Positions 5,368-49,808 of a stretch of DNA of 64,000 bases are shown here, piece after piece. Location: IMG/VR virus record IMGVR_UViG_3300042922_000600, positions 11,239 through 75,238 of that record; one strand, given 5' to 3'. Position 1 is the first letter of the stretch, and the number at the start of each line of letters is the position of its first letter. Both the position numbers and the translations under genes were made by a program. The DNA comes from a virus. The notes under the pieces are model-generated. The model saw nothing but the letters and a program-made list of their open reading frames with translations. It was not told the DNA's origin and did no database searches.

Positions 5368-5396
5368 AATACTACCCAAAAAATGGGTAGTATTTT
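5368..5396 (+). terminator. intrinsic terminator
   Basis: aatactaccca/tgggtagtatt stem followed by T run. Confidence 0.7.
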
Positions 5397-5440
5397 ACTA
5401 TTAAGGGGTGCAATAAAACCGCAAAATGTCAGAATTAAGG
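5388..5440 (+). repeat. dispersed ~53 bp element, copy 1 (TAGTA...AGAATTAAGG)
   Basis: TAGTA exactly 43 nt before AGAATTAAGG, as in copies at 14276 and 49756. Confidence 0.65.
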
Positions 5441-5487
5441 CACACTATTACGAGCCCTTACTGCGTTTTGTACGACGGAGGTAGTAT

Positions 5488-5787
5488 ATGAGCGGAACCA
5501 TATATATTAGCGGTAGTTTTATGATATTTAGAAGTGGTAAGGGTTTTGTAGTGTACAATAGAGCGAAGGATTTTAAAGGTGGTCATACACATCTAAACAA
5601 TTTTAATGCGGGAAAGAAGGCTATAAAGTTGGTGCAGAGAAAGATTATTCCTACCAGAAGTAGTAACTACTTTCTTGAGAGTTTAGCCAGACTGAGTAAC
5701 GACATTGAGTACTCTTCAAAGCTAAGGCAGATAATTATAAACAGGAATCCTAACTCCAAAACTGGAGCTACTGAGGAAAATAAATAG
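5488..5787 (+). CDS. basic hypothetical phage protein (GGHTHL motif)
   Basis: GGAGGT RBS; lies between terL and portal. Confidence 0.65.
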   Translation: MSGTIYISGSFMIFRSGKGFVVYNRAKDFKGGHTHLNNFNAGKKAIKLVQRKIIPTRSSNYFLESLARLSNDIEYSSKLRQIIINRNPNSKTGATEENK

Positions 5788-5822
5788 ATTAAAAAGTTTT
5801 GAATAAATTTTTCCAAAATATG

Positions 5823-5851
5823 TTGCATAATGGAAATTTTTATATTATAAT
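5823..5851 (+). promoter_or_regulatory. sigmaA-like promoter TTGCAT-N17-TATAAT for the head operon
   Basis: hexamers read directly from sequence. Confidence 0.7.
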
Positions 5852-5917
5852 ATGTTTGTAAGATATATAGTCAGAAGTTACATTAAATGACTTTAACAAA
5901 CCAAATGGGGTGAGATT

Positions 5918-7543
5918 TTGAGTGGCATACAAAATGCAACAAGAAGCTTGATAAAAGCGTCAGTAATAGAAAATAAGTTATTGCCTGCAAATGCTCAAGT
6001 ATCAGAGCCAGAAGATACATTTGACTACGGTGGAGGTGCATATACACCACCATATGATTTATATGCACTACTTAAATTCCCAGAGTACAGTAATATACTT
6101 GGGGAATGCATTGATGCGTATAAAAACAACATAACTGGATTTGGTTGGGAGATTGTGCCCGTAATAGATACAAATAGTACAAGCTATGACAAGAATCTGG
6201 AAGCGGTTGCTATACAGCAAAAAGAGGAAGCTGAATTACTTTTTCATTATGCCAACTATAAAGAAAGTTTTACGCAATTAACTAAAAAGATAGTTGACAA
6301 TAGAGAAAGGAACGGTAATGCGTACCTGGAAGTAATTGAGAACGTGAATGGTGTTCCATGTGGGTTTGAGTTTGTAAACAATAGTAGTAAGGTTAGAATC
6401 CTTAAGCCAATCGATGCTGTGGACATATCAATGGAAGTCAAATATGGTGAAGGGCGTAAAAAGACCAAGAACATGACAATACCAGTCAGATTTCACCGTT
6501 ATGCAATGAATGATGGGGGCAAGAGAATATTCTTCAAGGAGTATGGAGACCCACGTCCTATGAATAAGTATACGGGTGAGTATGGTAAAGACATTACTGA
6601 GGAACAGAAAGCAAGCTGTTTAATACATTTTAAGATAGAGTCAATTTATAATCACTATGGAGTACCTAGGTACATTGGAAAAGTTCCTAGTATTGTGGGC
6701 AGTAGAAAGTCCGAGGAGTTGAACATTTCCTTTTTTGACAATGGGAGAATTGTTCCAGCGGCTATATTGATAGAAAATGGTCAATTGACGCAGGAAGCAC
6801 ACGACGCCATTTCAGAACTGCATGGCAATGCAAAAGCATTTAGATTCCTATTGCTGGAAGCTGAATCTTTTCAGGAAGATGATTCAATTGTTGAGTCCGA
6901 AAATAAGAAACAGAGTAACGTTAAGATAGACGTAAAGCCATTGACAGAGCTCATACAGCAAGACGGATTATTCCAGGACTATGACAAGAACAATAGAAAT
7001 AAGATACGCTCCAGTTACAGGATACCACCAATCTACACAGGTGAATCCCAGGATTACAGTAAATCTACTGCACAGACAGCCAGAGCAGTTGCAGAGGCAC
7101 TTGTATTTGAGCCAGAGCGCCAAGAACTGTCCGAGCCATTTAATAGAATACTGAGAGACTTAGGGTACGACTTAGTTGAATTTAGATTCAAGTCCCCTAA
7201 ATTGACTGACAAGTACGAACTAAGTAAGGCACTTGCACCATACGTAACCAGTGGAGTTGCTACACCAAACACATTGGTTGAGGCTTTAAGTGACTTGTTG
7301 GGCAGGAAGATGAATGTAATCGAAGAGGAGTGGGGAGACTTACCATTATCCATGACAATTAAGAAAATGGAAATAGAGTCAATTGCGAACCGTATAGGTA
7401 GTGCAATTGTGGATGAGCCAGAGGAAGAGATAGAAGAGGGCGAAGTACAGAAGTCAAACAACTTTAGCAAGCAAGAGGTAACTACAATCCTAAAAGAAGT
7501 TCTTTGCGAGATAAAGAAGGTGGCGGAGTATGAAGAAGACTAA
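5918..7543 (+). CDS. portal protein (PBSX XkdE-like)
   Basis: PPYD, GNAYLEV, YGVPRY, FFDNG, RIPPIYTG...DYSKSTA motifs. Confidence 0.9.
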   Translation: MSGIQNATRSLIKASVIENKLLPANAQVSEPEDTFDYGGGAYTPPYDLYALLKFPEYSNILGECIDAYKNNITGFGWEIVPVIDTNSTSYDKNLEAVAIQQKEEAELLFHYANYKESFTQLTKKIVDNRERNGNAYLEVIENVNGVPCGFEFVNNSSKVRILKPIDAVDISMEVKYGEGRKKTKNMTIPVRFHRYAMNDGGKRIFFKEYGDPRPMNKYTGEYGKDITEEQKASCLIHFKIESIYNHYGVPRYIGKVPSIVGSRKSEELNISFFDNGRIVPAAILIENGQLTQEAHDAISELHGNAKAFRFLLLEAESFQEDDSIVESENKKQSNVKIDVKPLTELIQQDGLFQDYDKNNRNKIRSSYRIPPIYTGESQDYSKSTAQTARAVAEALVFEPERQELSEPFNRILRDLGYDLVEFRFKSPKLTDKYELSKALAPYVTSGVATPNTLVEALSDLLGRKMNVIEEEWGDLPLSMTIKKMEIESIANRIGSAIVDEPEEEIEEGEVQKSNNFSKQEVTTILKEVLCEIKKVAEYEED

Positions 7544-8405
7544 GCTACTAAAAATGGCATCCATTATAGAAACGGCGTTACTAAAAATGGAAACCACCGA
7601 GGAATGGATAAAGGGCATTGTAACCAACCCAGTATGGGCGGGCTTTGCTGTGAATGAGATAGATGCTTTTATTGACATCATAAACACTCAATTGGGTAAC
7701 CAAATGCAAGCGTACTCGGATAGGGTAAACAAGTATGTTCCTGTAGTTAAGGAGCTGGAAATAGAAGTCACAAGCTATGAGGGGTTTGTCAGGGAATACA
7801 TAACAAACGACTCCAACACATGGCAGGATGAACTACAGGGTCTATACTATAGTACAATGTTTCGACTTATGTCGGACACTGCGGAACTACTTATAAAAGA
7901 GATTGGGTTTGACATAGACCTAAACAAGTTTGATATACATATAAGTAATTTCTTGGAGACAAAGTCCATTAAGTGGGCACAGCAGGTAAATCAAACTACA
8001 GAAAAGGCAGTTAGGGAATTTTTAGTTAAGGGATATGAGGAAGGAAGGCATTTCACTGAAATAGCACAAGAAATTAAGGATTTGCCAGCATTCAGTATAA
8101 ACCGGGCCATAACAGTGGCGAGAACAGAAATACTTGGCGCCACAAACCATGTAGATTTTTACTACAATGTGAACACTGGAATATATTATGCTAAGAAGTG
8201 GAGAACTTCCTTGGACGAGAGTGTAAGAAAGACTCACCAATTAGCAGAGGGTCAAGTGGTATTAATAAATGAGGCATTTAACGTAGGTGGTTTTCAACTA
8301 ATGTATCCGGGTGACACAGAGCATGGTGCACCAGCGGAAGAAATAATAAACTGCCGATGTGGACTTGAGTACTTGACACAAGAGGAATATAATTCATTGG
8401 AGTAG
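7530..8405 (+). CDS. minor head protein (Mu gpF / SPP1 gp7-like)
   Basis: ARTE, K.W....D..VR.TH, PGD...PAEEIINCRC. Confidence 0.9.
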   Translation: MKKTKLLKMASIIETALLKMETTEEWIKGIVTNPVWAGFAVNEIDAFIDIINTQLGNQMQAYSDRVNKYVPVVKELEIEVTSYEGFVREYITNDSNTWQDELQGLYYSTMFRLMSDTAELLIKEIGFDIDLNKFDIHISNFLETKSIKWAQQVNQTTEKAVREFLVKGYEEGRHFTEIAQEIKDLPAFSINRAITVARTEILGATNHVDFYYNVNTGIYYAKKWRTSLDESVRKTHQLAEGQVVLINEAFNVGGFQLMYPGDTEHGAPAEEIINCRCGLEYLTQEEYNSLE

Positions 8406-8408
8406 GAG

Positions 8409-11373: not shown

Positions 11374-11374
11374 A

Positions 11375-13218: not shown

Positions 13219-13455
13219 ATGAAAGAGGTATTATTTATTGGCTTAGGCCCACAGGGCAACTATAGCCACAATGGCAATCAATATGTAAATGGAGACGTTA
13301 TGGTATGCGAGGAAGCTGTAGCAGACGAACTCATAAATAACCATTTAGCAGTTGATATAAATGATGGTAGCCTGGATGTTTCAAAGACTAGAGAGCAAAT
13401 AAAGAAGGACGATGAAGCAAGACAGGCTATACTAATGAAGGGAGGTAAAAAATAA
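13219..13455 (+). CDS. hypothetical virion protein
   Basis: GGAGGTGA RBS; translationally coupled to the tail tube gene. Confidence 0.6.
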   Translation: MKEVLFIGLGPQGNYSHNGNQYVNGDVMVCEEAVADELINNHLAVDINDGSLDVSKTREQIKKDDEARQAILMKGGKK

Positions 13456-14258
13456 TGGGACAAATTGATAAAATTACCATTGGAGTTGCAGACTTGTACT
13501 ACACACCACCAGGAGGTGGCGTTGAGGTCTACTTAGGTTTAACCAAAGGTGGTGGAGAGTTCAATTATGAGGCTGACTGGCATGATATAAATGAGATTGA
13601 CCAGTTTGGTACTACAATTGTTGACAGTATTTTAATTGGTGAGAAGGCGTCCTACAAGACAAACGTTGTAGACACAAGCCTAGTCGCAATAAAGAGAGTT
13701 GCCCCAACTGCCAGCGATGCGGGTGGAAAAGCACTAACCTTTGGACAGCGTCCGGGACTTAGAATGCAACCATTGGCGGGAAGACTTAGAATACATCCTG
13801 TAAGTGCAGGATTCAATGATAAGTCTAGAGATGTTATAATCTACAAGGCGGGCAGTAAGACTAACTTGAATCTTCAATACAAATTGGATTCTGAGTGGGT
13901 CGTGCCTTGTGAGTGGGCGGCATACCCGGATGAGGAAAGACCATTGGGCGACCAATTATTTAGGATTGGGGATGAAAGTGTTGACCTGCCAGGACCAACA
14001 AAGAGATTAATTAATTTCTATTTAACACCAAGTAACCCTACGGTTGCGTCAGGACAGACACAGGCATTCAGTGCTAATGCTGTATATGAGGACGGCACAA
14101 CCGATGATGTTACAGATGACTGTACATGGGCTTCCTCAAATGAGGCTACACTTACAATTAATAGTGCCGGAAGTGCTGATGCAGTAGCGGCTGGCGTCGC
14201 GACGGTAACTGCAACCTATGGTGGTTATACAACTAGCACGACAGTAACCGTAAGCTAA
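13455..14258 (+). CDS. major tail tube protein with C-terminal Ig-like (Big_2) domain
   Basis: LGLTKGGGEF, DQFG; C-terminal YEDGTTDDVT...TWASSN...ATVTATY. Confidence 0.85.
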   Translation: MGQIDKITIGVADLYYTPPGGGVEVYLGLTKGGGEFNYEADWHDINEIDQFGTTIVDSILIGEKASYKTNVVDTSLVAIKRVAPTASDAGGKALTFGQRPGLRMQPLAGRLRIHPVSAGFNDKSRDVIIYKAGSKTNLNLQYKLDSEWVVPCEWAAYPDEERPLGDQLFRIGDESVDLPGPTKRLINFYLTPSNPTVASGQTQAFSANAVYEDGTTDDVTDDCTWASSNEATLTINSAGSADAVAAGVATVTATYGGYTTSTTVTVS

Positions 14259-14275: not shown

Positions 14276-14328
14276 TAGTATAAATATATTACCCCTTGTA
14301 GGAAAGGGCAGTAATGGCAGAATTAAGG
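14276..14328 (+). repeat. dispersed element, copy 2
   Basis: tagtataaatatattaccccttgtaggaaagggcagtaatggcAGAATTAAGG. Confidence 0.75.
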
Positions 14329-14359
14329 GGTGTTCGTGCATGGAAACGGCACCCCCTTT
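14327..14359 (+). terminator. hairpin / probable terminator
   Basis: ggggtg/cacccc stem followed by ttt. Confidence 0.55.
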
Positions 14360-15149: not shown

Positions 15150-17267
15150 ATGGCTGATAGCAGAGTGAGGGTAATTCTAGAGGCAGTCTTAACTAATTTT
15201 ACAAAGGGAATTGGTCAGGCAAAGACACAGCTACAGGATTTGGGCAAGGTAAGTAGCCAGGCAGGCAAACAGGGTAGGCAGATATTTCAGCAGATGAACT
15301 CGTCGGCAAGGAATGCCAGAGGTGAGTTGGAAGGGATTAGAATGCTGTTAGGTTCCCTTTTTAGCATGTACGCAGGTAAAAAGTTAATAGATTTTACTAT
15401 AGGCAACGCCTCAGAGTTTGAAAACTATCTACTCAGATATAGCGTTTTATTAAAGTCCATGGATGCCGCTCAAGACCGTATGCAGGAAATGAGGGACTTT
15501 GCAATATTTACCCCATACCAATTGGATGAGGTAGTAAAAGCAGACTTGCTCCTTGAGAGTTACGGAATTCGTAGTATAGAATTATTAAGGGTTGCAGGTG
15601 ATGCCGCGGCAGGAACTGGGCAAGAGATTGAGGAAGTTGCTTTCTGGTTAGGGCGTATTGCTTCCGGAGATACTGGCTATGGCTTAATGAGGCTTGCCGA
15701 GATGAGTATTGTAACCAGAACACAGTTACAGGCAATGGGTCTAGAATTTGATAATGCAGGTGCATATGTTGGAAGCTTGGATGACTTAATGAATGCGTTG
15801 GCTACACACATGCAATCCAAGTACCCGGGCATGATGGATAAGTTAGCAGTGACAGGCAAGGGATTATGGAGTACTATACAGGACGTCTTGGGTGAGTTTG
15901 GTAGGGATATAGGCTTTAAGTCTCTTGATAATGCTAAGGAATCCGCAATAACATTTATTAATGAGCTACAGAGGTTGAGAGATGATGGTACTTTAGATGT
16001 GTGGACACAGCGTATCGGAGATGCCTTAGCTTGGGTGTTTGAACAGCTAACCAAGTTTGTGGGTGACATAGAGCAAACGGGCAACAAACTCGCAGGATTC
16101 TTTAAGTGGTTTGGAGACAACTGGTATTGGATTTCTGAGGCTATATTGTTTGCAGTGCAGGCATGGCTAATATTTAAGGCATCCATGGCAGTGGAGCCAC
16201 TAATCTATGGCGTTGCAACTGCAATATCTGTTTTGAGTGGAATGATGACGGCCTACAGCAGTGCCACAACTGTAGCAACGGGTATCACAGCGGCATTTGG
16301 AGTTGCACTAAAGGCGGTGGGAATTGGTTGGATAATTGCAATTATTGGTTTGGTAATTCTAGCAATTGTGAAACTGGTGCAAAATTGGGATTCAGCTAAG
16401 AACTGGATATTGTTCGGGTGTAATGCAGTGTTGCTGGCATTCCAGCTGATGGGGTATGGAATAATGGCAGCCATAAACTTAATTGTTGAAGTAATTGCAT
16501 GGATGACGTCGTGGATACCAGGTATAGGGGACGCTATGGAAATTGCGGCTCAGGCTACAAATGAGGCACTTGCATCAGTTAGGACAGGGATAGATGATAC
16601 CATTAATAGAATGGCTGAGCTTAGGAATGCGGCATTGGAAGCCAGTGAGGCAATGAAGGATGTAGAATTACCGGAAGGGCCACCAATTTTAGACATGGAA
16701 GCTCCAGGGCAAGGGGATGTACCGAAATTTGAAGGACTTGGCTCAAGGGGTGGAAGTGGGAAGAAGAAAACACAGGACGCCATTGACCTTATAGATGACG
16801 AATATAAGTACCAGATACAAATCTCAGAGGGAAAGGCTAATCTACATGATAATGACACAAACAAAACCATGTGGAAACAATTGATGTTGAGTACTGTGGA
16901 GGTTTTGAAGGCTAAGCTACAAGAGGTTACCGCTATTGCAAGTACGGCAACTGGTAAACTACAGGAAAAAGCGGAAGCCAAGAAGTATGAGATATTAAAT
17001 CGTATTCAGGATATAACAGAGGAAATAAAGGACAACACAGCAAAATTGGTGCAGGACTTTGGAACCCCATCATTCATTAATTCCACATCATTGAAGCAGT
17101 TTAGAGCATCTACGATGGCTACTTCAGCTGGATTTACAGTAAGCGGTGCGAACTTCGTGTTTGAGTTACAAGAGGCACCTCGTACAGAGGATGACTGGAA
17201 GGATATTTTCAAAACTTCGGAAGATGCACTTGCACACTTTTTGGACAACAGAAGGAGGAGAGGCTAG
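15150..17267 (+). CDS. tape measure protein
   Basis: FA..TPY.L.EV, hydrophobic helical mid-region, position. Confidence 0.9.
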   Translation: MADSRVRVILEAVLTNFTKGIGQAKTQLQDLGKVSSQAGKQGRQIFQQMNSSARNARGELEGIRMLLGSLFSMYAGKKLIDFTIGNASEFENYLLRYSVLLKSMDAAQDRMQEMRDFAIFTPYQLDEVVKADLLLESYGIRSIELLRVAGDAAAGTGQEIEEVAFWLGRIASGDTGYGLMRLAEMSIVTRTQLQAMGLEFDNAGAYVGSLDDLMNALATHMQSKYPGMMDKLAVTGKGLWSTIQDVLGEFGRDIGFKSLDNAKESAITFINELQRLRDDGTLDVWTQRIGDALAWVFEQLTKFVGDIEQTGNKLAGFFKWFGDNWYWISEAILFAVQAWLIFKASMAVEPLIYGVATAISVLSGMMTAYSSATTVATGITAAFGVALKAVGIGWIIAIIGLVILAIVKLVQNWDSAKNWILFGCNAVLLAFQLMGYGIMAAINLIVEVIAWMTSWIPGIGDAMEIAAQATNEALASVRTGIDDTINRMAELRNAALEASEAMKDVELPEGPPILDMEAPGQGDVPKFEGLGSRGGSGKKKTQDAIDLIDDEYKYQIQISEGKANLHDNDTNKTMWKQLMLSTVEVLKAKLQEVTAIASTATGKLQEKAEAKKYEILNRIQDITEEIKDNTAKLVQDFGTPSFINSTSLKQFRASTMATSAGFTVSGANFVFELQEAPRTEDDWKDIFKTSEDALAHFLDNRRRRG

Positions 17268-21643: not shown

Positions 21644-21664
21644 CAAGGGGGTCATTCCCCCTTG
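21644..21664 (+). terminator. hairpin / terminator
   Basis: caagggg/ccccttg stem. Confidence 0.55.
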
Positions 21665-24600
21665 CTTAATATTTTAGGGAGGAATGGTTATATGAATTAT
21701 GGTAATTTCTTTGAAGAACTATTAAAGTCAGGCAAGAATTTTAACGCATACGGAATATCTTTTCAAGGCGGCTACGACAATTCATACTCATTTTCCTTCC
21801 TGCCCACGGCCCTTTGGAAATACCTTTATTTTGCATACTTACCATTTGAAGAGAGGGTGGGGGACGTATTCAACGGAATGCTACTACTGGATAGAAACAT
21901 AGAAATTGAAGCCATTGGCAGGCAATGGGGGATGATGTTAGATAGAATGAACGGCAAAGAAACCAAGCTTGGGCATAGTCTTATGTCGAAGAACAATGAC
22001 AGGCTAGCACGCACCCACAATGCTTTGCTGACAGATAAATCCAAACTATCCGAAATTTTTAATGTTCTGCACGCTACTAAAATGAAGGAAGTACAGAACG
22101 AGCTCCTTAAACAGGCAATAAAAACGGAAGGTGCATTTAGCTTACCCCTTATGGGAACACTGGAGCTGGACAGAATTAAGGCTTGTATGGGCTATGTAAA
22201 CAGCACTGGGTTGCCCATGTTAGTAATAAATAGGGTATTATACATCAGCAGGATGTTGGAGCTCGGAAAATTAAATTTTGCCCACGTAGATAAGGGTATT
22301 GATGGTATAGAAAAATCAAATGCGGAATTGATAGTACAACGTATCAAGTGGCAAAACTTATTTAGAGGGCTACAGGAAATCTTGCTTACTCATATTGAGA
22401 AATCTGGAAGGCTTAAAGTTACAGAAATTATGGAGGATGCCCTGATAAGTGGATTGAGTGCGACTGTAGACGGGGTGGTGTTAAATGAATTCTTAGAGTA
22501 CCTCAATGGTGCTACTGCAAGTAATACGGAAATATTTGTTCCAACCACTAATATGGAATTGGGAGCTTACCCGGAAAAGGAAATGGGAACCTTACTGGGC
22601 CTAGAAAATCCTGGGGAAATAATTAAGCATCTACAATATATAGGGAAGGGCCTATTGGGCTCAAGTGAGTTAAAAAATGCACATATAGAACATGAGAACT
22701 ATACAGGCTCCTGCAATATGAGAGAGGCTAAGCTGAGTGTAATTGGCTGGGTTGAGCGAGCACTGTACCAATTGATAGTGGATGATATCTCATATGGCTT
22801 GGAGGGTGAAAGTGAGGCTACACTAATCAAGGATATGTACTCACTGCAGGCAGAAGGGGAAGAATTTATTTTATCCACTTATACAGGAATTAGTAAGTCA
22901 GAGCGTGAGCTTGCCTTAGGGGACATAGACGTGGGCACCATAGAGCAGTGGGTTGATGCAATTACTGAGTTATTAATTCTAGACAGTGGGACCGACAGAG
23001 AGATAAAATTAGACAGACTGATTGACTCCTACATGAGCACAATTAGGGAAATTTTGAAGACTCATCAAGTGTCAGCTGAGCTAAGATATACAAGACAGGT
23101 ATTTACAGGCAGGGAAATGATGGGACTGTACAGGAAATTTAAAGACTCCACTGTACCACAGGGATTGGATAGGTATTTAAAGTTCGGAAAGGAATTTACT
23201 ATACAGAAATACCTACACAGTGCCACAGTGTTGATGAGGGAGACGATAATAAACCTACCCCCGAGCAAGCTGGCTAAATCGCTTAAGGATATGTCAGTAC
23301 TGCAATCTGGTGTACTTAGCACGGAAGTAAAATCAATATTTCAGGAATTGCTGGCAAGGTCTTACATGCTGTCAAAGGAACAAAAAGGCATTATAAATTC
23401 CAAAATTGCAGGCTATGATTTCTCAAATAAAATGCCATATATCATACGTGGCATGCTTACGGGGGACACAGAGATTAAGAAATTCACACAGGCCAAGCCA
23501 TTCGAATTGCTTGATAAAACGCTTAGGCAACTAATAGCACAAGAAGGATTAAAGGATTCATCCACCGTGGAGCAGAAGGAACTGTTTATTGATTACTCGA
23601 TGTACCATTTGGATGATAAACTAAAAAAAGAAATTGCACGTCTAGACCTAGAATATCAGTCGGATAGCAAAGATAGAGATGCTTTACTTCAAGAATTTCT
23701 TATGGAGTTTGAAAGGCAGATGGTGGAGATGCGGATTGTTAACAGACTGCATCAATTGACAAGAAAAGAAAAAGACTCCGTATGTATTAAGGACCCAGTT
23801 GAGTTGGAGAAACAGTCCAGAGACATTGACCTCATAAGAGACAGTAATAGAGTTCTAAAGTCTTGGAGAAAGCTATACATAATGCATATAGGCGCCCAGT
23901 TTAGGCAGTTAACTCAAATAGATAGAACACACATCGGGCATGCGGATAGGGGACCACGTGAATTGCTTAATTTAGTAATCTTGTTGCAACTTAACCAAAA
24001 GCTGAGAGAGGCAGATGGTGGGGGTCGACTCATAACCGTAGTGGATGACGGAGAGTATTTGATAGACCTAATTGAAATGCAGGAGCGCCTAGATAAGTTA
24101 GACAAGCCCGCACCACAAATTAGGAACTTGATACACGGAATTGAGGTGGAGGAAAAAGAGCTCTTGCGTTTAAGCATAGACAAACTCCTGCAGGGCTCCA
24201 AGGAAAGACTTACATTTGTGGACAAAATCTACCAACTATCGGACGATAAAAGAGAGCTGGTGTCTGTATTCCATGAACTACTTTTGGAACGTGACGGAAC
24301 AGAGGAACTGTACCAACTTGGGCAGGAGCTGGTGGAGAAAATAAAGAACGGGTTAACTTTGGATGATGCAGAGTTGGATAAGCTAAAGGAAGTCACAGTG
24401 GAAATTGGGTTCCTATTTGATGAGATGTACAGAAGGTGGTACTTTATGCCCAGCGATGGTCCATACGATGACCCGCTTGTACCAAATGAGAATTGGGACT
24501 ACATAAATAACCCAATAAATGGGTTTATGGAAGACCCCTTACCGGGAAAGGAGGAGGGCAGGGGTAGAGTCCTTGTTGATTTGGATATACTCAAAAATGT

Positions 24601-25039
24601 AATAGATTTCATGGAGCTACTGTTTAGAACAAATTTATCCGGATACGCAGGGTGTACGCCGGAACAAGCAATAAAGCATTTTATAACAGCAATGTTTGAT
24701 TGGCTCGACCATCAAATACCGGACACAGAGGATAAAATTCCAGAGTTTTACCCAGACGACTATGATAGATACAACAATCCAAACATGGAGGGTAGGCAGG
24801 ACTATTGGAAAATATTTAGACACGTAAGATGGTATTCTGAAGGTATTTTAAATAATATAACGGAATCCGAGAAAACGGGCTTAAAGGGGGCTAAATATGT
24901 AAGAAGCATTATTGATAAAATGATTGAGTATTACAAGAGCCACCACTCGGATGAAGACTTAAAGCTTGACAAATTTAAAGGCTTTAGGAGAAGAAGTATT
25001 CAAAAGAGTAATAAACTATTAAAAAAGGAGGAAATATAA
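21662..25039 (+). CDS. large fibre-like virion protein (true start probably 21692)
   Basis: 1125 aa with a long quasi-repetitive centre; GGAGG lies before ATG 21692. Confidence 0.6.
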   Translation: MLNILGRNGYMNYGNFFEELLKSGKNFNAYGISFQGGYDNSYSFSFLPTALWKYLYFAYLPFEERVGDVFNGMLLLDRNIEIEAIGRQWGMMLDRMNGKETKLGHSLMSKNNDRLARTHNALLTDKSKLSEIFNVLHATKMKEVQNELLKQAIKTEGAFSLPLMGTLELDRIKACMGYVNSTGLPMLVINRVLYISRMLELGKLNFAHVDKGIDGIEKSNAELIVQRIKWQNLFRGLQEILLTHIEKSGRLKVTEIMEDALISGLSATVDGVVLNEFLEYLNGATASNTEIFVPTTNMELGAYPEKEMGTLLGLENPGEIIKHLQYIGKGLLGSSELKNAHIEHENYTGSCNMREAKLSVIGWVERALYQLIVDDISYGLEGESEATLIKDMYSLQAEGEEFILSTYTGISKSERELALGDIDVGTIEQWVDAITELLILDSGTDREIKLDRLIDSYMSTIREILKTHQVSAELRYTRQVFTGREMMGLYRKFKDSTVPQGLDRYLKFGKEFTIQKYLHSATVLMRETIINLPPSKLAKSLKDMSVLQSGVLSTEVKSIFQELLARSYMLSKEQKGIINSKIAGYDFSNKMPYIIRGMLTGDTEIKKFTQAKPFELLDKTLRQLIAQEGLKDSSTVEQKELFIDYSMYHLDDKLKKEIARLDLEYQSDSKDRDALLQEFLMEFERQMVEMRIVNRLHQLTRKEKDSVCIKDPVELEKQSRDIDLIRDSNRVLKSWRKLYIMHIGAQFRQLTQIDRTHIGHADRGPRELLNLVILLQLNQKLREADGGGRLITVVDDGEYLIDLIEMQERLDKLDKPAPQIRNLIHGIEVEEKELLRLSIDKLLQGSKERLTFVDKIYQLSDDKRELVSVFHELLLERDGTEELYQLGQELVEKIKNGLTLDDAELDKLKEVTVEIGFLFDEMYRRWYFMPSDGPYDDPLVPNENWDYINNPINGFMEDPLPGKEEGRGRVLVDLDILKNVIDFMELLFRTNLSGYAGCTPEQAIKHFITAMFDWLDHQIPDTEDKIPEFYPDDYDRYNNPNMEGRQDYWKIFRHVRWYSEGILNNITESEKTGLKGAKYVRSIIDKMIEYYKSHHSDEDLKLDKFKGFRRRSIQKSNKLLKKEEI
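22129..22181 (+). repeat. dispersed element, copy 3 (inside a CDS)
   Basis: TTACCCCTT 30 nt before AGAATTAAGG, identical spacing to copy 2. Confidence 0.65.
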
Positions 25040-34513: not shown

Positions 34514-34694
34514 ATTTTGGGTAGCTGTAACTGGATTTTTAACTGCTTTAATGGTAGCATTCAAGGTACCGGACTTAACAATAGAGCAAGTAGTTGCAGT
34601 TATTTCAGCATGTGCAACATTGGTAGCTTATATTATCGGAGAAGGTATGGTTGATGCCTCCAGAGGTAGTAAGGGAAGTGATGACGTTGCATAA
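34476..34694 (+). CDS. holin
   Basis: NWKQKLTSRKFW, AYIIGEG.VD; two TM segments. Confidence 0.8.
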   Translation: MKINWKQKLTSRKFWVAVTGFLTALMVAFKVPDLTIEQVVAVISACATLVAYIIGEGMVDASRGSKGSDDVA

Positions 34695-35250
34695 GTTATA
34701 TGAGGGTGAGTATAAAATAACCAGTCCTTTTGGGCCAAGGGAATTACCTAATGGGGATAAAAGACCACACAAAGGAATTGATTGTGTGGGCATCGGGAAT
34801 AAAAATATAATTGCCCCCACAAATGGGAAAATTGTATCCTCCCAGATTATCACCAATAAGAGTAGCCCTTCTTGGGAATGGGGAAACTATGTTAAGATGG
34901 ATGACCTAAATGGATATCACTTATTCTTCTGCCACCTGGGTAGCAGAGCAGTAAAGACGGGTCAGCTAATAGAGAAATATGCTAGGATTGGGGTGGAAGG
35001 ATACACTGGGTATGTATATCCACAAAACTCAAACGGAAGCCACCTGCACTTTGAAGTAAGAAGAAAGTCGGATGGTGTGTCTATAGACCCCATGGAGTAC
35101 TTTAAAATACTTGCAGAGTGGGAGGCTAAGCACTTAGCAGAACTTAGGTTAAAAGTTCAGTCCACATTTGGATTTGATGACGGCACAATGAAGTTTTTCG
35201 ATGGGCATCCATACCCAGGTTCATTATTTAGTAAGATGTTGAAAAAATAG
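34681..35250 (+). CDS. endolysin, M23 peptidase
   Basis: ITSPFG.R, HKGID, GNYV, HLHFEVR; likely start ATG 34681 (track start 34651). Confidence 0.9.
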   Translation: MTLHKLYEGEYKITSPFGPRELPNGDKRPHKGIDCVGIGNKNIIAPTNGKIVSSQIITNKSSPSWEWGNYVKMDDLNGYHLFFCHLGSRAVKTGQLIEKYARIGVEGYTGYVYPQNSNGSHLHFEVRRKSDGVSIDPMEYFKILAEWEAKHLAELRLKVQSTFGFDDGTMKFFDGHPYPGSLFSKMLKK

Positions 35251-35256: not shown

Positions 35257-35292
35257 AAGAATAGAGCTTTGAAGTGAGGCTCTATTCTTTTT
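35257..35292 (+). terminator. intrinsic terminator ending the late region
   Basis: aagaatagagc/gctctattctt followed by T run. Confidence 0.8.
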
Positions 35293-35329: not shown

Positions 35330-35382
35330 GGTGTAGCAAATTACTTAAACTTGTTTTTCGTAGCACTGGGCTAGAATTAAGG
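35330..35382 (+). repeat. dispersed element, copy 4
   Basis: GGTGTA 43 nt before AGAATTAAGG. Confidence 0.6.
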
Positions 35383-35438
35383 TGTGTGCAAAGCGGTTCC
35401 TTACATATATTAATAGTAAAATACTAAGTAACTTGCCT

Positions 35439-35468
35439 TTTACATTTCAGGCTGACAGGTTTTATACT
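35439..35468 (+). promoter_or_regulatory. promoter TTTACA-N18-TATACT
   Basis: conserved class, see findings. Confidence 0.75.
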
Positions 35469-35484: not shown

Positions 35485-37212
35485 ATGATGATAATGAATG
35501 TATCAATGGAAAAGAGAGATGCAGTGGATATGAAACATATCTGCGAATACAGTCTGTTTCTAAAGGTTCCTGACAGTAAGTACTACAAGGACAAGGTACA
35601 GGAGTTACCCAGAAAGTGGAAACATCTTTCCTCCGGTGAGATAGAAGTACCATTATTGGACATAACTAAGGTACTGAGGACCTTTGAACAGATAGAAATT
35701 GTCGGGGATATACCAGAACTTAAATTAATGAAGATGAAGCGGGATATGACAAAAAGAGAGTACTACTCAAACTTGGAGTGCGTTGAGAATTATCCAATTG
35801 AAATGCCCTTCAAAGGTGGCACTCAATTGAAACCCTACGGACACCAAATAGAAGCGTTTCACTACATGATGAATAGAAATTCATTCCTACTTGGGGACGA
35901 CATGGGACTTGGAAAAACGTTGGAGTTTATTAGCGGGTGTGAGTGGAGACGGAAAAAGTATGGGGACGATTTCAGTAAGGTTTTATATGTAACTAAGGCT
36001 GGATTGAAATATAATGTAAGGGATGAAATTAAATTCTGGCTGCCCAATGCAAATGTAGTGACAATAGAAGGTGATAGCAAAAAGCGGTTGGAGCAATTAA
36101 GAAATGTATACACATGCAAAGAGCTTGTATACTTTATTATGGGCTATGAGCAAGTTAAAAACCATATACAACAACTTGAGTTAATACCAATAGATGGCAT
36201 AGCCATAGATGAGAGCCATAAAATGAAAAATCCGAGTGGGGCTGTGTGGGGAGCATTGAGTCAGTTGAGGGATATACCATTTAAGGTAGTCATGTCCGGT
36301 ACCTACATTATAAATAACCATGAAGAGGCTTGGACGCCTTTAACTTTTATTGGTGTTGAGAGTAGGGAATTTCACCACTTCAAGTGGTCCTACTATGAGT
36401 CAGTTAAGGGTAGATATGGAAGAGAGATAACAGGTACCAGAAAATTGGATGAGTTGGGTAAGATTGTTAGGTCCAATATGCTTAGAAGAACAAAGTCGGA
36501 AGTTATGGATATGCCAGAAAAGAACTACAAGAATGTTCATGTTGAGATGGGTGGTAAGCAGACACAGATTTACAAGGCGGTAAGAGACCGGATAAAACAA
36601 GAGCTATCAGAATTGGGTATAGGTAGGGGTCTTTCCAATCCCATGGTAAAACTGCTTAGGCTAAAGCAAGTTACAACTAACCCGGAATTAATAGGTAGCG
36701 ATGCCCCAAGTGCAAAGCATGAGGAACTAATTGACATTATTTCAGATATAGTAAAAAATGGTGAGAAGGCAATTGTATTCAGTCAATTCGAGGAAGAGGC
36801 ACAAAGACTGAAGTTACTGCTTGCTGAATACAATCCTGCATATGTTACGGGAGTAGTTGCTCCACAGGACAGGAAAAAGCAGGCAGACAAATTTCAGGAA
36901 GATGATAGCTGTAAAGTATTTATTGGTACTTCCCAGTCCTGCAGAGAGGGATTGAATTTAACTGTGGCTACCTATGTAATATTTATGGACCTGGAATGGG
37001 CACCCGCCTACATAGCACAGGCAGAGGACAGAGCTTATCGTATAGGGCAAAAGAATAACGTAACAATTATTCGACTTTTGTGTAGGGGCTCCATAGATGA
37101 GTATATAGTCAATGAAGTTCTATCCCGTAAACAGCAGATTTTTGATGAAATAATAACCGGCAAGCGTGCAATTACACCAAACGAAATTAAGGACATATTA
37201 GACGCCATTTAA
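35485..37212 (+). CDS. SNF2-family helicase/translocase
   Basis: GDDMGLGKT, DESH, SGT, LRRTK, EGLNL, QAEDRAYRIGQ. Confidence 0.95.
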   Translation: MMIMNVSMEKRDAVDMKHICEYSLFLKVPDSKYYKDKVQELPRKWKHLSSGEIEVPLLDITKVLRTFEQIEIVGDIPELKLMKMKRDMTKREYYSNLECVENYPIEMPFKGGTQLKPYGHQIEAFHYMMNRNSFLLGDDMGLGKTLEFISGCEWRRKKYGDDFSKVLYVTKAGLKYNVRDEIKFWLPNANVVTIEGDSKKRLEQLRNVYTCKELVYFIMGYEQVKNHIQQLELIPIDGIAIDESHKMKNPSGAVWGALSQLRDIPFKVVMSGTYIINNHEEAWTPLTFIGVESREFHHFKWSYYESVKGRYGREITGTRKLDELGKIVRSNMLRRTKSEVMDMPEKNYKNVHVEMGGKQTQIYKAVRDRIKQELSELGIGRGLSNPMVKLLRLKQVTTNPELIGSDAPSAKHEELIDIISDIVKNGEKAIVFSQFEEEAQRLKLLLAEYNPAYVTGVVAPQDRKKQADKFQEDDSCKVFIGTSQSCREGLNLTVATYVIFMDLEWAPAYIAQAEDRAYRIGQKNNVTIIRLLCRGSIDEYIVNEVLSRKQQIFDEIITGKRAITPNEIKDILDAI

Positions 37213-37299: not shown

Positions 37300-37617
37300 G
37301 TGTATAACATGATATATATAAAAGGTATGCCATACAGAAAAATTAGTGAAGTCGCTAAGATTGTTGATGTACATCCAAACACTTTACGAAATTGGGATAA
37401 ATTTGGCGACAAGCTGGAAGAAGAAGGGCAACAGAGGCCCATACCTAAGTCTTATAGACCCGGGACACGTGGTATAAGATATTGGAATGATGCTCAAATA
37501 GAAGAAATAGAGAAGTATAAGGATAAAGACAAATATGGAGAACTTGCATACTTCAATCGAGCTGAGTGGGGTGACAGAGGTAAACACTTACCTAACTATA
37601 AAAACCAACCCGATTAA
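37300..37617 (+). CDS. MerR-type HTH DNA-binding protein
   Basis: ISEVAKIVDVHPNTLRNWD; R...G.RYW. Confidence 0.8.
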   Translation: MYNMIYIKGMPYRKISEVAKIVDVHPNTLRNWDKFGDKLEEEGQQRPIPKSYRPGTRGIRYWNDAQIEEIEKYKDKDKYGELAYFNRAEWGDRGKHLPNYKNQPD

Positions 37618-38478: not shown

Positions 38479-38688
38479 GTGTTAGACATGGCGAGCTTAA
38501 GAAGAATTAAGGTTGGTTTGGGCATTACCGCTCAAATTGGGACACAGTACATAAAGCCATCTGCAGAGGTGGAATTGGTATTAACTGGTGATGAAACAAA
38601 AGAGGAAATTGACAAGGTTTGGGAACAGGGATGGAATGCATGTAGTAGGGAAGTTGAAAGAGTTATAACAGAATATGCCAAAGACTAA
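38479..38688 (+). CDS. hypothetical protein (likely start 38488)
   Basis: AGGAGGTG RBS; terminator at 38687-38714. Confidence 0.6.
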   Translation: MLDMASLRRIKVGLGITAQIGTQYIKPSAEVELVLTGDETKEEIDKVWEQGWNACSREVERVITEYAKD

Positions 38689-41600: not shown

Positions 41601-41654
41601 GGTGTAACTTTATACCTGTAACACGAAATGGTATTACAGGGGCAGAATTAAAGG
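41601..41654 (+). repeat. dispersed element, copy 5
   Basis: GGTGTA at -43, cctgtaa/ttacagg hairpin, AGAATTAAAGG. Confidence 0.65.
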
Positions 41655-41754
41655 CGTACCATTAGCATTAAACACAATGCAAAGGTACAGTATATTTTGC
41701 ACAATACAAAAGTAGTTGAGTTCGTTTATACTATATTGTAGGGAGGTCATTGAC

Positions 41755-45112: not shown

Positions 45113-45499
45113 TGTGGATTGGATGAATTAACTCCAATAGTAACAAAGGGTGTCACTTGTGCAATTAACAATAAATACTTATTATTACAAGTAATTTTAA
45201 ATTTATACATTATTTTTAAAATTGTTACAAAAATTAGTAAAAAATTGTTGTAATATGTAAAAAAATGTTGTATAATAATATTGTAAAGTTAATACATAAT
45301 GAAATTACATAATTAATAAGGCACCTTTTGCATATAGTACTCGGATTGGAACTATTAGTTGGCCCATTGGATAATTGGCTTGGTGCATATTTTGACAGCG
45401 AAATTATTGAATGGGCTATACTTATTGGCAAAAATTCAACATTCACACAATTGGTGCGAGTTTTTGAAACAGACTAAACTAAACTAGGAGGATTTAAAA

Positions 45500-46117
45500 A
45501 TGAACAATGTTCAAGAAATGGCGTTAATGGTTAAAAATGGTGAAATAGGTGAGGAAGAGTTCATAATTGGATGCAAGAAAATAATAGAGGATGCTTCCTA
45601 CAAATGGTACCAAAAGGTAGGGCTAATGGATGGGAGAGAAATTCAAGAGAAAAGACAGCTATGTAGTATTTGGTGTTGGGAGGCGTTAAGAAATTACAAT
45701 CCGGAGAAGGGTAAATTTACGACGCTGTATTATGCTCATACACAGAATATGATAAAGAACCTATGTAGAAGAAGTACAAATGATAACGAGAAGGCAAATA
45801 ATTACACAAACTGTTTCAGCTATGAATTCAGTATATGTGGTGAGAGCGAAAATTCCTCAGAAGAAGGAAGTGCATTTATAAAGCATCAGTGCAATGAAGA
45901 GGATGGATTTGAAAGAGTTGAGATTGAAATGATGCTAAAGCACAACGGTTTTGATGATATAACTATGGGCATTGTTAAGTATAAAATGGAAAGCCCCGAA
46001 ATGCCGGATGCAGAAATTGCCAGACTATTAGGCTATAGTAGAGCATATATTAGCCTACTATGGAGAAAGGTTAAGCCTTTTCTAGCCAGCCAGCTATGCA
46101 CAGCGGATAATTTTTAA
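45500..46117 (+). CDS. sigma-70-like factor
   Basis: W.AL..YNPEKGKF.T region-2-like; EIARLLGYSRAYIS HTH. Confidence 0.75.
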   Translation: MNNVQEMALMVKNGEIGEEEFIIGCKKIIEDASYKWYQKVGLMDGREIQEKRQLCSIWCWEALRNYNPEKGKFTTLYYAHTQNMIKNLCRRSTNDNEKANNYTNCFSYEFSICGESENSSEEGSAFIKHQCNEEDGFERVEIEMMLKHNGFDDITMGIVKYKMESPEMPDAEIARLLGYSRAYISLLWRKVKPFLASQLCTADNF

Positions 46118-46124
46118 AAACCAG

Positions 46125-46397: not shown

Positions 46398-46460
46398 CCA
46401 AAACACTTTAAACACTTTCCAAACTAAAAAAACTTAAAACAAGAAAGGTGGAAATTATTT

Positions 46461-47126: not shown

Positions 47127-47174
47127 CTAGAGCTAGATAAGGGGGGTGGAATTTAATATTCCATCCTTTTTTAT

Positions 47175-47204
47175 GTTACAATACAAATTGAAACCTTTTA
47201 TACT
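47175..47204 (+). promoter_or_regulatory. promoter GTTACA-N18-TATACT
   Basis: conserved class; follows a terminator at ~47139-47172. Confidence 0.7.
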
Positions 47205-47233
47205 GCATTGTATACTAATTGGAGGTGGAAGAT

Positions 47234-47323
47234 ATGAAATGTGCATACAAGATAGCCTACGGTTGTGGTAGCTGTGGCGGAAGAAGAGACTGCCCATACG
47301 CGAACAGAAAGAAAGGATGGTAG
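47234..47323 (+). CDS. 29-aa four-Cys micropeptide (not in track)
   Basis: GGAGGTGG RBS; MKCAYKIAYGCGSCGGRRDCPYANRKKGW. Confidence 0.55.
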   Translation: MKCAYKIAYGCGSCGGRRDCPYANRKKGW

Positions 47324-47326
47324 AGA

Positions 47327-49747
47327 TTGAAACGTAATTTACTTTTTGGGGTTGACAATAATTTAAAGAGGGATGTAATAAATCCAAAAGAAATAAATAA
47401 AATTATATCCTCCATGACTGAGAAAAGGACAGTTAAGAAGTCCGGAGCCGGAAAAAGTATTGGTAAGATAAAACAGACGGTTTCCATACTTGTGGATGAG
47501 TTTAAGAAAAAGCACCCAAACTTACTTTCAGAGTGGCCGAGTAATTACATATTAGTGGACACAGACGAGAAGTTGGATAGACTACTTCGCTCCATTGAGG
47601 AGTGCAGAAGATTTTCGTATGACACAGAAACTATGGGCCTAAAGATATGGCATGGCGATAACATAGTAGGGATGTCTTTTTATACGCCCTGTGATGGTAA
47701 TGCCTGGTATATACCAATACATCATCTTGACTGTGTAGAACCTGTGGAGGGTAAGCAATTACCTGTGGAGTTTATAAAAGAAAATATGGCACCTGTTATG
47801 CGGAAGAAAAGAGAAGAATCCCTTGCGTACAGTATGCGAACTTTAAACAGTATTGACGACATAGACATGTCCGAGGAATACTGTGGTGTTGTAACATTCA
47901 ATGGTAAGTTTGACAGCCATGTGGTTTGGATAAATTTAGGCATTGAAATGCCGGATATTGCGTTTGAGGGATATTTAGCATCAAGGGTATTAAATGAAAA
48001 TGAACCAGTAAATAAATTGAAGCCCTTGTGCAATAAATGGCTCAAACAGTACCAACAAAATCCGTTAGACAAATTTGATGAGATATTTGAAAAGACGCCA
48101 TGTGCCTACTTTCCAATATGGATGGTTGGTTATTATGCATGCAAAGACGCCATACTTCATTGGGAATGGATGGAATTTGCGGAGAGCCACATAAAGAAGA
48201 GACCCGGCCTTGCTGAGTCCTACTATGTAATACAGTTGCAGGTTATGCCATCAGTAATTGCGGCAGAGCGTAGAGGTATGTTGCTGGATGTAGACAGAGT
48301 AAACGCAAACAAGGAAGAATTTGAGGGATACAAGGTTGCTATTGAGAAAACAATAAAAACTCAATTACAGGAATTGATGGATAAATTCCTGGACGATAAC
48401 CCTCATGTGCAGGTTGTTAATGTCCCGCCCAGCACAAAGAATGGTAAAGCCAAGGTATTTGACAGGAACACTTTAAGGACATCTTTTATAGCCGGATTGA
48501 ACATAAACAGCCCTCCACAGTTGGGTGACTTATTTTTCTCAATATGGGGTTGGCCAACTACTAAGAAGGACGGCAAGGCTACAAATGAGAAGGTTATGCA
48601 AAGGCTCGCTAAACAATTTTCAGTATGTAAAAGCATCTTAGCATACAGAACAGTTAAGAAAATGATAGGAACTTACTGTGATGGCTTATTAGAATCAATT
48701 AGCCCCGTTGACGGTAGAGTTCATACTTCCTTTAACCCTTATAAGGCAGTTACCAACAGGTTCTCAAGTTCCGACCCCAATCTACAGAATATCCCTTCTA
48801 AGTCAAAGAAATTATTAATAGAGGGGCAGGAAGTTAAGGTCGATTTTGGTAAGAAGATAAGACGTTGCTTTATTGCAGAGGAAGGAAATGTCCTATGCTC
48901 CACTGACTACTCACAGATAGAGCCACGTATTCTAGCAGTGTTATCCGGAGATGAGACGATGCTTGACGCATATAGGAATGCCAAGGACGTGTACGTGCAA
49001 CAGGCAGTATTGTTCTTTCCCGGACACCCGGAACAGGAGTATTTAGACAATGACGATACAGGGTATAAAAGCCCATGGAGAGGTAAGGTTAAGGCAATAG
49101 TCCTTGGACTTAACTATGGTATGACAGAAGTTGGACTTGCTGAGGGACTGGACTGTACTGAGACAGAGGCTAAACGAGAGATTGAAAGATACTTTGACAC
49201 ATTTCCTGCAATTAAAAAGTTCACTCAAAGTGTGCTGGACTTTGCATATGAAAATGGATATGTGGAGATGTTGTACCACACAAAAAGAAGACTTCCTGAT
49301 TTGCATGATAGCCGTGCATGGATTCGCTCAGACGCAGAGAGACAGTGCGTAAACTCTATAATGCAGGGCTCTAGTGCTGAGATAACTAAAAGAGCTATGG
49401 CATTTATATATGCAAACCAGCGTCTAAGAGAATTGTGCGTAACTCTTATATCCACTGTTCATGATGAGGTTATTACTTCCATACCAAAAGATAATTTGAT
49501 GGAGGCTATACCAATTATTAAGCAGTGTATGATTGATGCATGTAGTAGACTTACTGAAAGAGGCGGTATAGTTATAAAAGTAGATGCTGAAGTAAGTGAG
49601 CAGTGGTATGGACCAGTATATCATTGGGAAGGGCATGAGGAAGTCGGAGAGGACAATGAAAAACTAATTCTTGAGGAACTGGACGATGATTTAGGTGAAG
49701 AAGAGACAGAAGTGCAAGATGAATACGAAGAGAGTGTATTTGCATAA
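47327..49747 (+). CDS. polA: family A DNA polymerase with 3'-5' exonuclease
   Basis: YDTET, FNGKFD, YACKDA; RFSSSDPNLQN, DYSQIEPR, KAIVLGLNYG, VHDE. Confidence 0.95.
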   Translation: MKRNLLFGVDNNLKRDVINPKEINKIISSMTEKRTVKKSGAGKSIGKIKQTVSILVDEFKKKHPNLLSEWPSNYILVDTDEKLDRLLRSIEECRRFSYDTETMGLKIWHGDNIVGMSFYTPCDGNAWYIPIHHLDCVEPVEGKQLPVEFIKENMAPVMRKKREESLAYSMRTLNSIDDIDMSEEYCGVVTFNGKFDSHVVWINLGIEMPDIAFEGYLASRVLNENEPVNKLKPLCNKWLKQYQQNPLDKFDEIFEKTPCAYFPIWMVGYYACKDAILHWEWMEFAESHIKKRPGLAESYYVIQLQVMPSVIAAERRGMLLDVDRVNANKEEFEGYKVAIEKTIKTQLQELMDKFLDDNPHVQVVNVPPSTKNGKAKVFDRNTLRTSFIAGLNINSPPQLGDLFFSIWGWPTTKKDGKATNEKVMQRLAKQFSVCKSILAYRTVKKMIGTYCDGLLESISPVDGRVHTSFNPYKAVTNRFSSSDPNLQNIPSKSKKLLIEGQEVKVDFGKKIRRCFIAEEGNVLCSTDYSQIEPRILAVLSGDETMLDAYRNAKDVYVQQAVLFFPGHPEQEYLDNDDTGYKSPWRGKVKAIVLGLNYGMTEVGLAEGLDCTETEAKREIERYFDTFPAIKKFTQSVLDFAYENGYVEMLYHTKRRLPDLHDSRAWIRSDAERQCVNSIMQGSSAEITKRAMAFIYANQRLRELCVTLISTVHDEVITSIPKDNLMEAIPIIKQCMIDACSRLTERGGIVIKVDAEVSEQWYGPVYHWEGHEEVGEDNEKLILEELDDDLGEEETEVQDEYEESVFA

Positions 49748-49755
49748 AAATATTA

Positions 49756-49808
49756 TAGTATAAATGTACTGCACCCCCATAAAAAGGGCTATAATGGTAG
49801 AATTAAGG
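49756..49808 (+). repeat. dispersed element, copy 6
   Basis: tagtataaatgtactgcacccccataaaaagggctataatggtAGAATTAAGG, near-colinear with copy 2. Confidence 0.75.

Follow-up and report, generated by a model that had tools for sequence, protein, structure and literature searches.

A dispersed two-box element in an uncultured phage genome as a candidate promoter family for a phage-encoded sigma factor

The 64,000-nucleotide window analysed here, positions 11239-75238 of the 75,238-bp IMG/VR record IMGVR_UViG_3300042922_000600 (G000) of an uncultured phage, is punctuated by a short exact element that points in the direction of the surrounding genes. The same genome encodes a 205-amino-acid divergent sigma-70-family protein, and it appears probable, at roughly 0.6, that the seven full copies of the element (c0-c4, c6 and c7) are double-stranded DNA promoters used by the host RNA polymerase together with this protein. 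Four features combine to suggest phage-sigma-dependent promoters: two boxes 17-19 bp apart, an orientation that follows the genes, the position of two copies directly behind terminators and the phage's own sigma gene. The element is most likely a familiar phage gene-timing device in a new lineage, and not a new kind of signal. Coordinates below are those of the window unless they are given as genome positions, which refer to the whole record.

Copies, placement and orientation of the element

The initial annotation of this DNA described six plus-strand copies of an element ending in a common core, and the six exact cores indeed begin at 5431, 14319, 22172, 35373, 41644 (an AAAG variant) and 49799, all on the plus strand, with core-to-core gaps of 8888, 7853, 13201, 6271 and 8155 nt. 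The upstream boxes assigned to them are present as well: TAGTAT at 5388, 14276 and 49756 and GGTGTA at 35330 and 41601 each lie 43 nt upstream of the core, the sixth box, GGTGCA at 22130, lies 42 nt upstream, and c2 and c3 share TTACCCCTT in register. A scan of the full genome on both strands recovered these six copies (c1, c2, c3, c4, c6 and c7). The annotation had missed a copy on the minus strand (c0), an eighth core at 38503 and a further box, ACNGC, downstream of the core. Conversely, the degenerate seventh copy proposed at 2413-2465 could not be upheld, as it carries three core mismatches and scores 4.6 bits (E 3.6).

The family is clearly enriched and sharply delimited. While the 8-mer AGAATTAA alone is not over-represented (9 observed versus 6.0 expected), the 10-mer AGAATTAA[AG]G occurs eight times in the whole genome; 200 third-order Markov genomes contained it 0.91 times on average and never more than 4 times, and this excess over chance bears out the earlier claim of a genuine repeat. 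One-mismatch variants of the 10-mer are scarce and fall mostly in coding DNA. With an nhmmer profile built from the 70-nt region, exactly seven members are recovered from G000 and seven from a close collinear relative, G001 (IMGVR_UViG_3300042922_000707, 76,232 bp). These score 22-38 bits, and no other match in either genome exceeds 10.5 bits. Every full copy is retained in G001. Apart from host-type promoters and the element itself, no other repeated motif family is over-represented, and a literature search for the 10-mer returned just unrelated primer matches.

In the structural region, c1 (5388-5464, plus strand) sits between the terminator that follows the large-terminase gene (3743-5362) and a conserved 99-amino-acid open reading frame (ORF; 5488-5787), and consists of an AGTATT box at 5389, the core GTCAGAATTAAGG at 5428-5440 and, after a 19-nt spacer, ACTGC at 5460-5464. 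The second copy, c2 (14276-14350, plus strand), lies between the gene for the Ig-domain major tail protein (13455-14258) and those for a putative tail chaperone and the tape measure (15150-17267); it carries a TAGTATAAAT box, TATTAC at 14287-14292, the core GGCAGAATTAAGG at 14316-14328 and ACGGC at 14346-14350 (spacer 17). Copy c3 (22130-22204, plus strand) is intragenic, falling at codon 171 of a 1125-amino-acid orphan ORF, and comprises the GGTGCA box, a core at 22169-22181 and ACAGC at 22200-22204 (spacer 18). The orphan ORF (21662-25039, in the tail region) is preceded by a terminator (21644-21664), is apparently helix-rich and without a Pfam or PHROG match, and is the most diverged long gene between G000 and G001.

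The remaining plus-strand copies accompany replication genes. Copy c4 (35330-35407) has a GGTGTA box, a core at 35370-35382 and a degenerate downstream box (TTACATA); a host-type promoter (35439-35468) and then the SNF2 helicase gene (35485-37212) follow it. Between the genes for the DnaC-like loader and the DnaB-like helicase is c6 (41601-41677), again with a GGTGTA box, followed by the core GGCAGAATTAAAG at 41641-41653 and a degenerate downstream box (TTAAACACA), and between the gene for the family A DNA polymerase (47327-49747) and a 94-amino-acid ORF succeeded by dnaX is c7 (49756-49831), with a TAGTATAAAT box, the core GGTAGAATTAAGG at 49796-49808 and ACTGC at 49827-49831 (spacer 18). The eighth core, c5 (38503-38531, plus strand), is a core only: an exact AGAATTAAGG spans codons 6-9 of a 66-amino-acid ORF, lacks the upstream boxes and is followed by ACCGC after just 14 nt. 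Since about 0.5 chance cores are expected per strand, c5 may be a chance occurrence, or alternatively a weak or relic site. A near match to the core, GGCAGAAATAATG (11 of 13 positions), is found at genome 8330-8465 within a structured 5' leader of about 135 nt, which is preceded by a host-type promoter and closed by GGGGCGG...CCGCCCC.

Six of the seven full copies occupy non-coding DNA, and five of these are situated 47-112 nt ahead of a start codon. Furthermore, orientation matches gene direction. Nearly all ORFs are on the plus strand, as are all copies in the rightward gene array, and the sole minus-strand copy, c0 (genome 2283-2359, core at genome 2316-2307, outside the window), sits on the left side of the divergent early promoter and has a leftward orientation. 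It is a full-length member of the profile, with an ACAGC box at the family spacing, and it faces about 2.3 kb of DNA (genome left arm, 1-2300) that has no credible ORF and holds an array of DnaA boxes. This array is co-oriented (TTATCCACA, plus strand), and two more boxes, TGTGGATAC, lie near 2140-2190 in the same arm.

The change of orientation at c0 beside a DnaA-box array would suit an origin-centred layout, and the strand specificity of the element, its plausible spacing of 6-14 kb and the phage's possession of its own replisome raise the question as to whether the copies are single-strand or fork replication signals (sites of primosome or helicase loading, or polar fork barriers) or oriented packaging or injection signals. 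Yet c0 points leftward even though the DnaA boxes lie 570 nt to its left, an arrangement that fits only with a distant unwinding site, and the copies have no conserved hairpin of the kind expected of primosome or single-strand-origin sites. The last 14 kb of the window is also devoid of copies. Neither the siting of the element after stop codons or terminators and ahead of start codons nor its pair of boxes 17-19 bp apart would be explained by such a role, which we therefore regard as very unlikely.

A second reading specific to c0 is that it encodes an antisense RNA acting in trans. Transcription would run rightward from a -10-like box, TATACTGTA, at genome 2295, and the 5' end of the RNA would bear CCUUAAUUCUGCC, which could pair with the cores in the rightward mRNAs. 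At genome 2295-2319 the plus strand does carry TATACTGTAG and, immediately after it, a perfect complement to the 13-nt core, the block at 2247-2362 is 98% conserved although its right flank has been replaced in G001, and exact invariance over 10-13 nt is typical of base-pairing seeds. However, there is no credible -35 sequence (ATAACT) and no terminator, and an antisense gene would require neither the full-length profile match of c0 nor the ACAGC box at the family spacing, both of which are expected of a leftward copy. An antisense gene at this locus is accordingly the least credible of the readings weighed here.

Two protected boxes and a promoter-length spacer

Alignment of the seven copies with MAFFT shows three blocks from the upstream side to the core: RGTRTA, (T)ATTAC(C) and the core (G)(G)(C)AGAATTAAGG. 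The first begins at -42 in c0, c1, c2, c3 and c7 and at -43 in c4 and c6, the second lies at about -32 to -27, and together they make up a loose GTR-N9/10-TAC dyad at a constant distance. A longer GTATAAATRTAYTAC-CCC stretch is common to c0, c2 and c7, and where c7 reads ACTGCA in G000, it reads ATTACA in G001.

The additional box, ACNGC, begins at +27 to +29 relative to the first position of the core in five of the seven copies (c0, c1, c2, c3 and c7), separated from the core by 17, 18, 18, 19 and 19 nt. It was the sole outstanding pattern when the 60 nt beyond the core were scanned position by position without prior bias, and an occurrence in five of seven was never reached in 300 shuffles. 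When cores with up to three mismatches were considered, ACNGC exceeded chance behind the exact cores alone.

All conservation comparisons were made with one relative, G001, which is about 90% identical overall (79-91% by aligned block, with roughly 88% of G000 positions unchanged). Summing the differences between G000 and G001 by position over the seven copies yields a footprint with two protected parts. The 13-nt core has changed at 1 of 91 positions (1.1%), and the ACNGC region at 1 of 70 (1.4%), this one change being an ambiguous one-base deletion in a run of C. The spacer that separates them is not protected (8 of 105, or 7.6% in the 15 nt after the core), nor are the first two boxes (8 of 119, 6.7%) or the upstream spacer (8 of 161, 5.0%); changes amount to 9.7% far upstream, 6.2% at +35 to +50 and 10% beyond. 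The core and downstream box of c3 are unchanged in G001, although the surrounding gene is only 66-83% identical. Two protected blocks with an unprotected spacer of 17-19 bp are the signature of a -35/-10 promoter.

The initial annotation had instead emphasised structure, proposing a strand-specific cis-acting system with fixed geometry and a conserved fold. The family and its geometry are real, and the hairpins it listed can be drawn, yet they are not a trait of the family: RNAalifold returns no consensus pair for the seven copies, and c2, c6 and c7 alone fold clearly better than random genomic windows, with c0, c1 and c4 no better than background. The search for covariation was equally unrewarding, as G001 breaks one stem pair in c6 and two in c3 and offers a single compensatory change, in c3. 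No Rfam family matches at gathering thresholds anywhere in the window. Box spacing is constant to within 1 nt with or without a hairpin, and a ruler on duplex DNA therefore fits better than an RNA fold. If the promoter reading holds, the hairpins seen in some copies are most likely incidental.

These results bear directly on the possibility that the element acts as RNA, as a leader or intercistronic signal, whether a processing site for an endoribonuclease specific for sequence or for single strands, a nut- or put-like antitermination signal or a stabiliser, with AGAAUU exposed as a single strand between hairpins. It is consistent with this that the copies are co-oriented with the mRNAs, that several have one hairpin ending before AGAAUU and another starting at AAGG, that the mean folding energy of the seven lies below that of random genomic windows, and that an early protein with an ASCH-like DUF3850 domain is labelled RNA-binding by PHROGs. 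A parallel is phage T7, in whose early and late mRNAs the RNase III sites are about ten co-oriented intergenic signals spread kilobases apart along a one-directional genome. Those sites share a conserved hairpin, whereas here there is no shared structure and the conserved parts are two linear boxes. Moreover, no promoter is predicted between c1 or c4 and the terminator that precedes each. Taken with the lack of consensus pairing, this makes an RNA signal improbable.

Several other identities for the boxes were considered and set aside. A host sigma-H site (GAAT as -10) has a matching -35 in c2 alone, and sigma-54, T4-late (TATAAATA), sporulation and extracytoplasmic function (ECF) consensus motifs were dropped on inspection of the copies. 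A leftward promoter on the opposite strand would have too long a spacer; ACNGC cannot serve as the -35 of a further -10, since the region beyond is not conserved. A leader peptide was rejected because an ATG at -5 occurs in just three copies, Shine-Dalgarno-like pairing with 16S rRNA because it extends over 7 of 10 positions with an internal mismatch, and a mosaic boundary or recombination hot spot because no consistent tie to identity breakpoints was seen.

As a separate observation, ACAGTATA recurs 7-37 nt 3' of the core in c0 (genome 2295-2303), c6 (41685-41693) and c7 (49832-49841), with a variant in c5. It is the -10 word of the early promoter, TATACTGT, in reverse complement, and on the opposite strand it would look like a -10 box aimed back at the core.

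Terminators, host-type promoters and a candidate sigma factor

Two of the copies stand directly 3' of strong intrinsic terminators. A two-way terminator at 5368-5394 follows the large-terminase gene, and its 3' arm and T-tail supply the TAGTAT of c1; a plus-strand terminator at 35257-35289, which closes the structural and lysis block, ends 40 nt 5' of c4. A promoter scan lists no host-type promoter between the terminator at 5368-5394 and the 99-amino-acid ORF at 5488, so that c1 must start transcription there unless this ORF depends on read-through.

Consensus host-type promoters are otherwise abundant and come in two flavours, TTTACA-N17/18-TATACTGTA and TTTACA/TTGCAT-N17-TATAAT. The first early operon begins at a consensus TTTACA-N18-TATACTGTA, and this class must therefore belong to a host sigma factor. 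As the initial annotation had recognised, the element matches neither class: no TTGACA- and TATAAT-like hexamer pair 16-18 bp apart is common to the copies in either orientation, as would be expected for host sigma-A.

The phage's own sigma-family gene lies at 45500-46117 on the plus strand, downstream of host-type promoters (45248-45276), and encodes the 205-amino-acid protein, which has regions 2 and 4 in an ECF-like arrangement. Direct searches find few close homologues (79% and 57% identity), and the wider homologue set spans 36-79%. A profile search of 1.8 billion representatives brought in two further relatives, followed by some 20 proteins of 175-260 amino acids; eight of the ten of these relatives that were scanned contain Pfam sigma-70 region 2, and most contain region 4 also. 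When the family profile was compared by hhalign with one relative bearing both regions (Pfam region 2 at 1e-19), residues 50-196 aligned with a probability of 96.7% (E 4e-10). The AlphaFold model is of low confidence (predicted local distance difference test score, 59), and the Foldseek matches listed for it are mostly sigma chains in polymerase complexes, with weak scores. A sequence search of solved structures with the protein gave no match. A weak syntenic homologue is present in Bacillus phage Flasso (MZ357961, 62925-63605), between primase and polymerase. Searches of IMG/VR with the sigma alignment and two sigma homologues returned just G001 or nothing, and a search of GTDB genomes with the alignment returned nothing. 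The gap 5' of the sigma gene (45113-45327) is a very AT-rich stretch of 215 nt with overlapping TTGTAA/TTGTTG...TATAAT promoter-like repeats.

With the early operon dependent on the host sigma factor and no further family of repeated motifs present, the element is the natural candidate for the promoters of the phage sigma factor. The following sequence of events can be envisaged. Host polymerase would first read the TTTACA/TATACT promoters, leading to synthesis of the phage sigma factor, and the holoenzyme carrying it would then initiate at the seven elements. The invariant core, (G-G-C)AGAATTAAGG, would be a -35-type element contacted by sigma region 4, and ACNGC, 17-19 bp downstream, a -10-type element contacted by region 2, with transcription starting some 6-9 nt past ACNGC, roughly 40 nt after the first core A, and proceeding rightward into the next genes. 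In this manner c1 would add transcription of a small head-region gene; c2 and c3, that of the tail chaperone, tape measure and distal tail genes; and c4, c6 and c7, that of the helicase and replication block, with c0 firing leftward into the non-coding, origin-like arm with its DnaA boxes. RGTRTA (-42/-43) and ATTAC (about -30), the less conserved boxes on the upstream side, might be a site for an accessory protein or a trace of common origin.

Several observations weigh against this proposal. In c4 and c6 the downstream box has no GC, leaving just wAC, c3 is intragenic, and c0 precedes no credible ORF. Host-type promoters already stand before many of the structural and replication genes, leaving no obvious need for a second class. 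A 13-bp invariant -35-type element also exceeds what sigma region 4 normally requires. The sigma assignment itself falls below the cut-off of the sigma70-ECF superfamily model TIGR02937 (21.7 bits, E 1.3e-4, against 42.9 bits), and a single pair of genomes allows no co-variation between sigma factor and promoters to be read.

The exactness of the core might alternatively reflect a docking site, with or without the downstream box, for a phage regulator, either a block to elongation of the stoperator type or an activator or loading site at which polymerase is modified as it comes in from upstream or initiates at adjacent host-type promoters. The stoperators of cluster A mycobacteriophages, bound by L5 gp71, are exact, asymmetric 13-bp intergenic sites oriented with transcription, and the present element resembles them in being exact, asymmetric, dispersed mostly among short intergenic spaces and co-oriented with transcription. 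In addition, c4 lies just 5' of a host-type promoter and c5 about 45 nt 3' of one, the upstream boxes make a loose GTR-N9/10-TAC dyad, and a MerR-like small helix-turn-helix protein is encoded at 37300-37617. Stoperators, however, occur in sets of 20-30 in temperate phages whose repressor is known, and they lack a second box at the distance typical of promoters, whereas here Pfam, PHROG and NCBIfam scans of about 80 ORFs (some small ORFs left out) detected no repressor, integrase or lysogeny module, and the protected boxes are spaced like -35 and -10 elements. Behind the terminators at c1 and c4, moreover, little upstream transcription would be left to control. A regulator site of this kind consequently seems unlikely.

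Regarded more broadly, the core could be not a -35 element but the point at which a dedicated phage factor docks, or an RNA pairs, to act on transcribing polymerase or on transcripts; it might be a linear nut-like signal that needs no hairpin, or the target of an antisense RNA from c0. This would amount to genome-wide, orientation-dependent control from seven fixed points, which to our knowledge has not been described for phages of Gram-positive bacteria; we consider it a long shot. None of the alternatives accounts for a footprint of two boxes at promoter spacing with the simplicity of the phage-sigma reading. The functions suggested by the initial annotation (primosome or helicase reloading, packaging or injection, and RNA processing or antitermination) also fit less well than this one, which it had not listed.

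Related systems and the biology of the phage

Middle and late genes are transcribed from phage-specific promoters under the control of phage-encoded sigma factors, for example gp28 and gp34 in SPO1 and gp55 in T4 (PMC9429907). The resemblance to SPO1, with its gp28 and gp33/gp34, extends to a low-GC Gram-positive host (probable here), a sigma-70-family factor of the phage's own and a small set of near-identical two-box sites, promoters in SPO1 and candidate promoters here, that differ from the host consensus and are co-oriented ahead of gene blocks. The element departs from SPO1 in several respects: its sequence is unrelated to the SPO1 promoter consensus sequences, consisting of a 13-bp invariant -35-type box and a short ACNGC -10-type box; it also precedes replication genes, and host-type promoters persist through the structural region; and the sigma protein matched few close relatives directly and no solved structure by sequence.

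A strongly conserved -35, a short G/C-containing -10 and a narrow spacer are characteristic of promoters for ECF (group 4) sigma factors, such as Bacillus SigW, SigM and SigX, and the element shares this layout, just as the phage protein shares the two-domain plan of regions 2 and 4. It differs from them in having neither an AAC -35 nor a CGT -10, no anti-sigma gene was recognised adjoining 45500-46117, and no copy of the element lies upstream of the sigma gene. Coliphage phiEco32 has a genome of similar size, about 75-77 kb, and a divergent ECF-like sigma factor, gp36, which serves its middle and late promoters. Those promoters, unlike the present element, are characterised by a -10-region consensus only, and phiEco32 infects a host of another phylum and shows no sequence relation.

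The nearest cultured polymerases, about 30% identical, are those of Clostridium phage phiCTP1, Streptococcus phage Dp-1 and Bacillus phage Flasso, and the host is therefore probably a low-GC Gram-positive bacterium. Polymerase homologues that are 56-83% identical exist beyond the cultured phages. Searches of IMG/VR with the family A polymerase, both as a single protein and as an alignment, gave just G001 plus unrelated matches at 24% identity; the class-A element pattern gave just G001 and one chance coding match there; two scans of JGI metagenomes for relatives gave nothing; and blastn against cultured phages found no match to G000. Flasso, a syntenic distant relative, has no AGAATTAAGG family and possesses a different repeated cassette instead. 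At least 14 copies of this cassette are co-oriented in intergenic DNA of MZ357961 (for example at 59124, 63681, 67656 and 74095), each running from an A-rich tract through a variable stem, the conserved loop ACTTAAAAAA, a co-varying return stem and TTTT to ACTATATGTAC, and they look like terminator-promoter cassettes. A second Flasso repeat, ACTTAYAAAACTT, adjoins ribosome-binding sites towards the right genome end.

The phage genome also contains recognisable genes for an M23 peptidase (34651-35250), a portal protein (5918-7543), a replication initiator, the DnaC-like loader, the DnaB-like helicase, a primase, a single-stranded DNA-binding protein and a clamp loader (dnaX); no RNA polymerase gene was found in it. 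The last ORF of the window (62857 onward, reaching 63997-63999) runs off the record, and bases 1-3 of the record are an in-frame TAA, such that the record closes neatly if circularised. G000 and G001 begin and finish at homologous positions, which suggests a fixed physical end or a common cut point.

The lineage is uncultured, and its nearest cultured kin, with DNA polymerases about 30% identical, infect Clostridium and Bacillus. The finding opens no new field, and its practical value is modest, lying in an orthogonal sigma-promoter pair for Gram-positive synthetic biology and in an example of regulon finding from sequence only. If the promoter reading is correct, however, it would provide a promoter consensus and a probable regulon for an orphan, highly divergent phage sigma factor. 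It would furthermore reveal phage-sigma promoters that are overlaid on a full set of host-type promoters and reach replication as well as tail genes, and the copy firing into the DnaA-box arm would suggest that late transcription and replication are linked.

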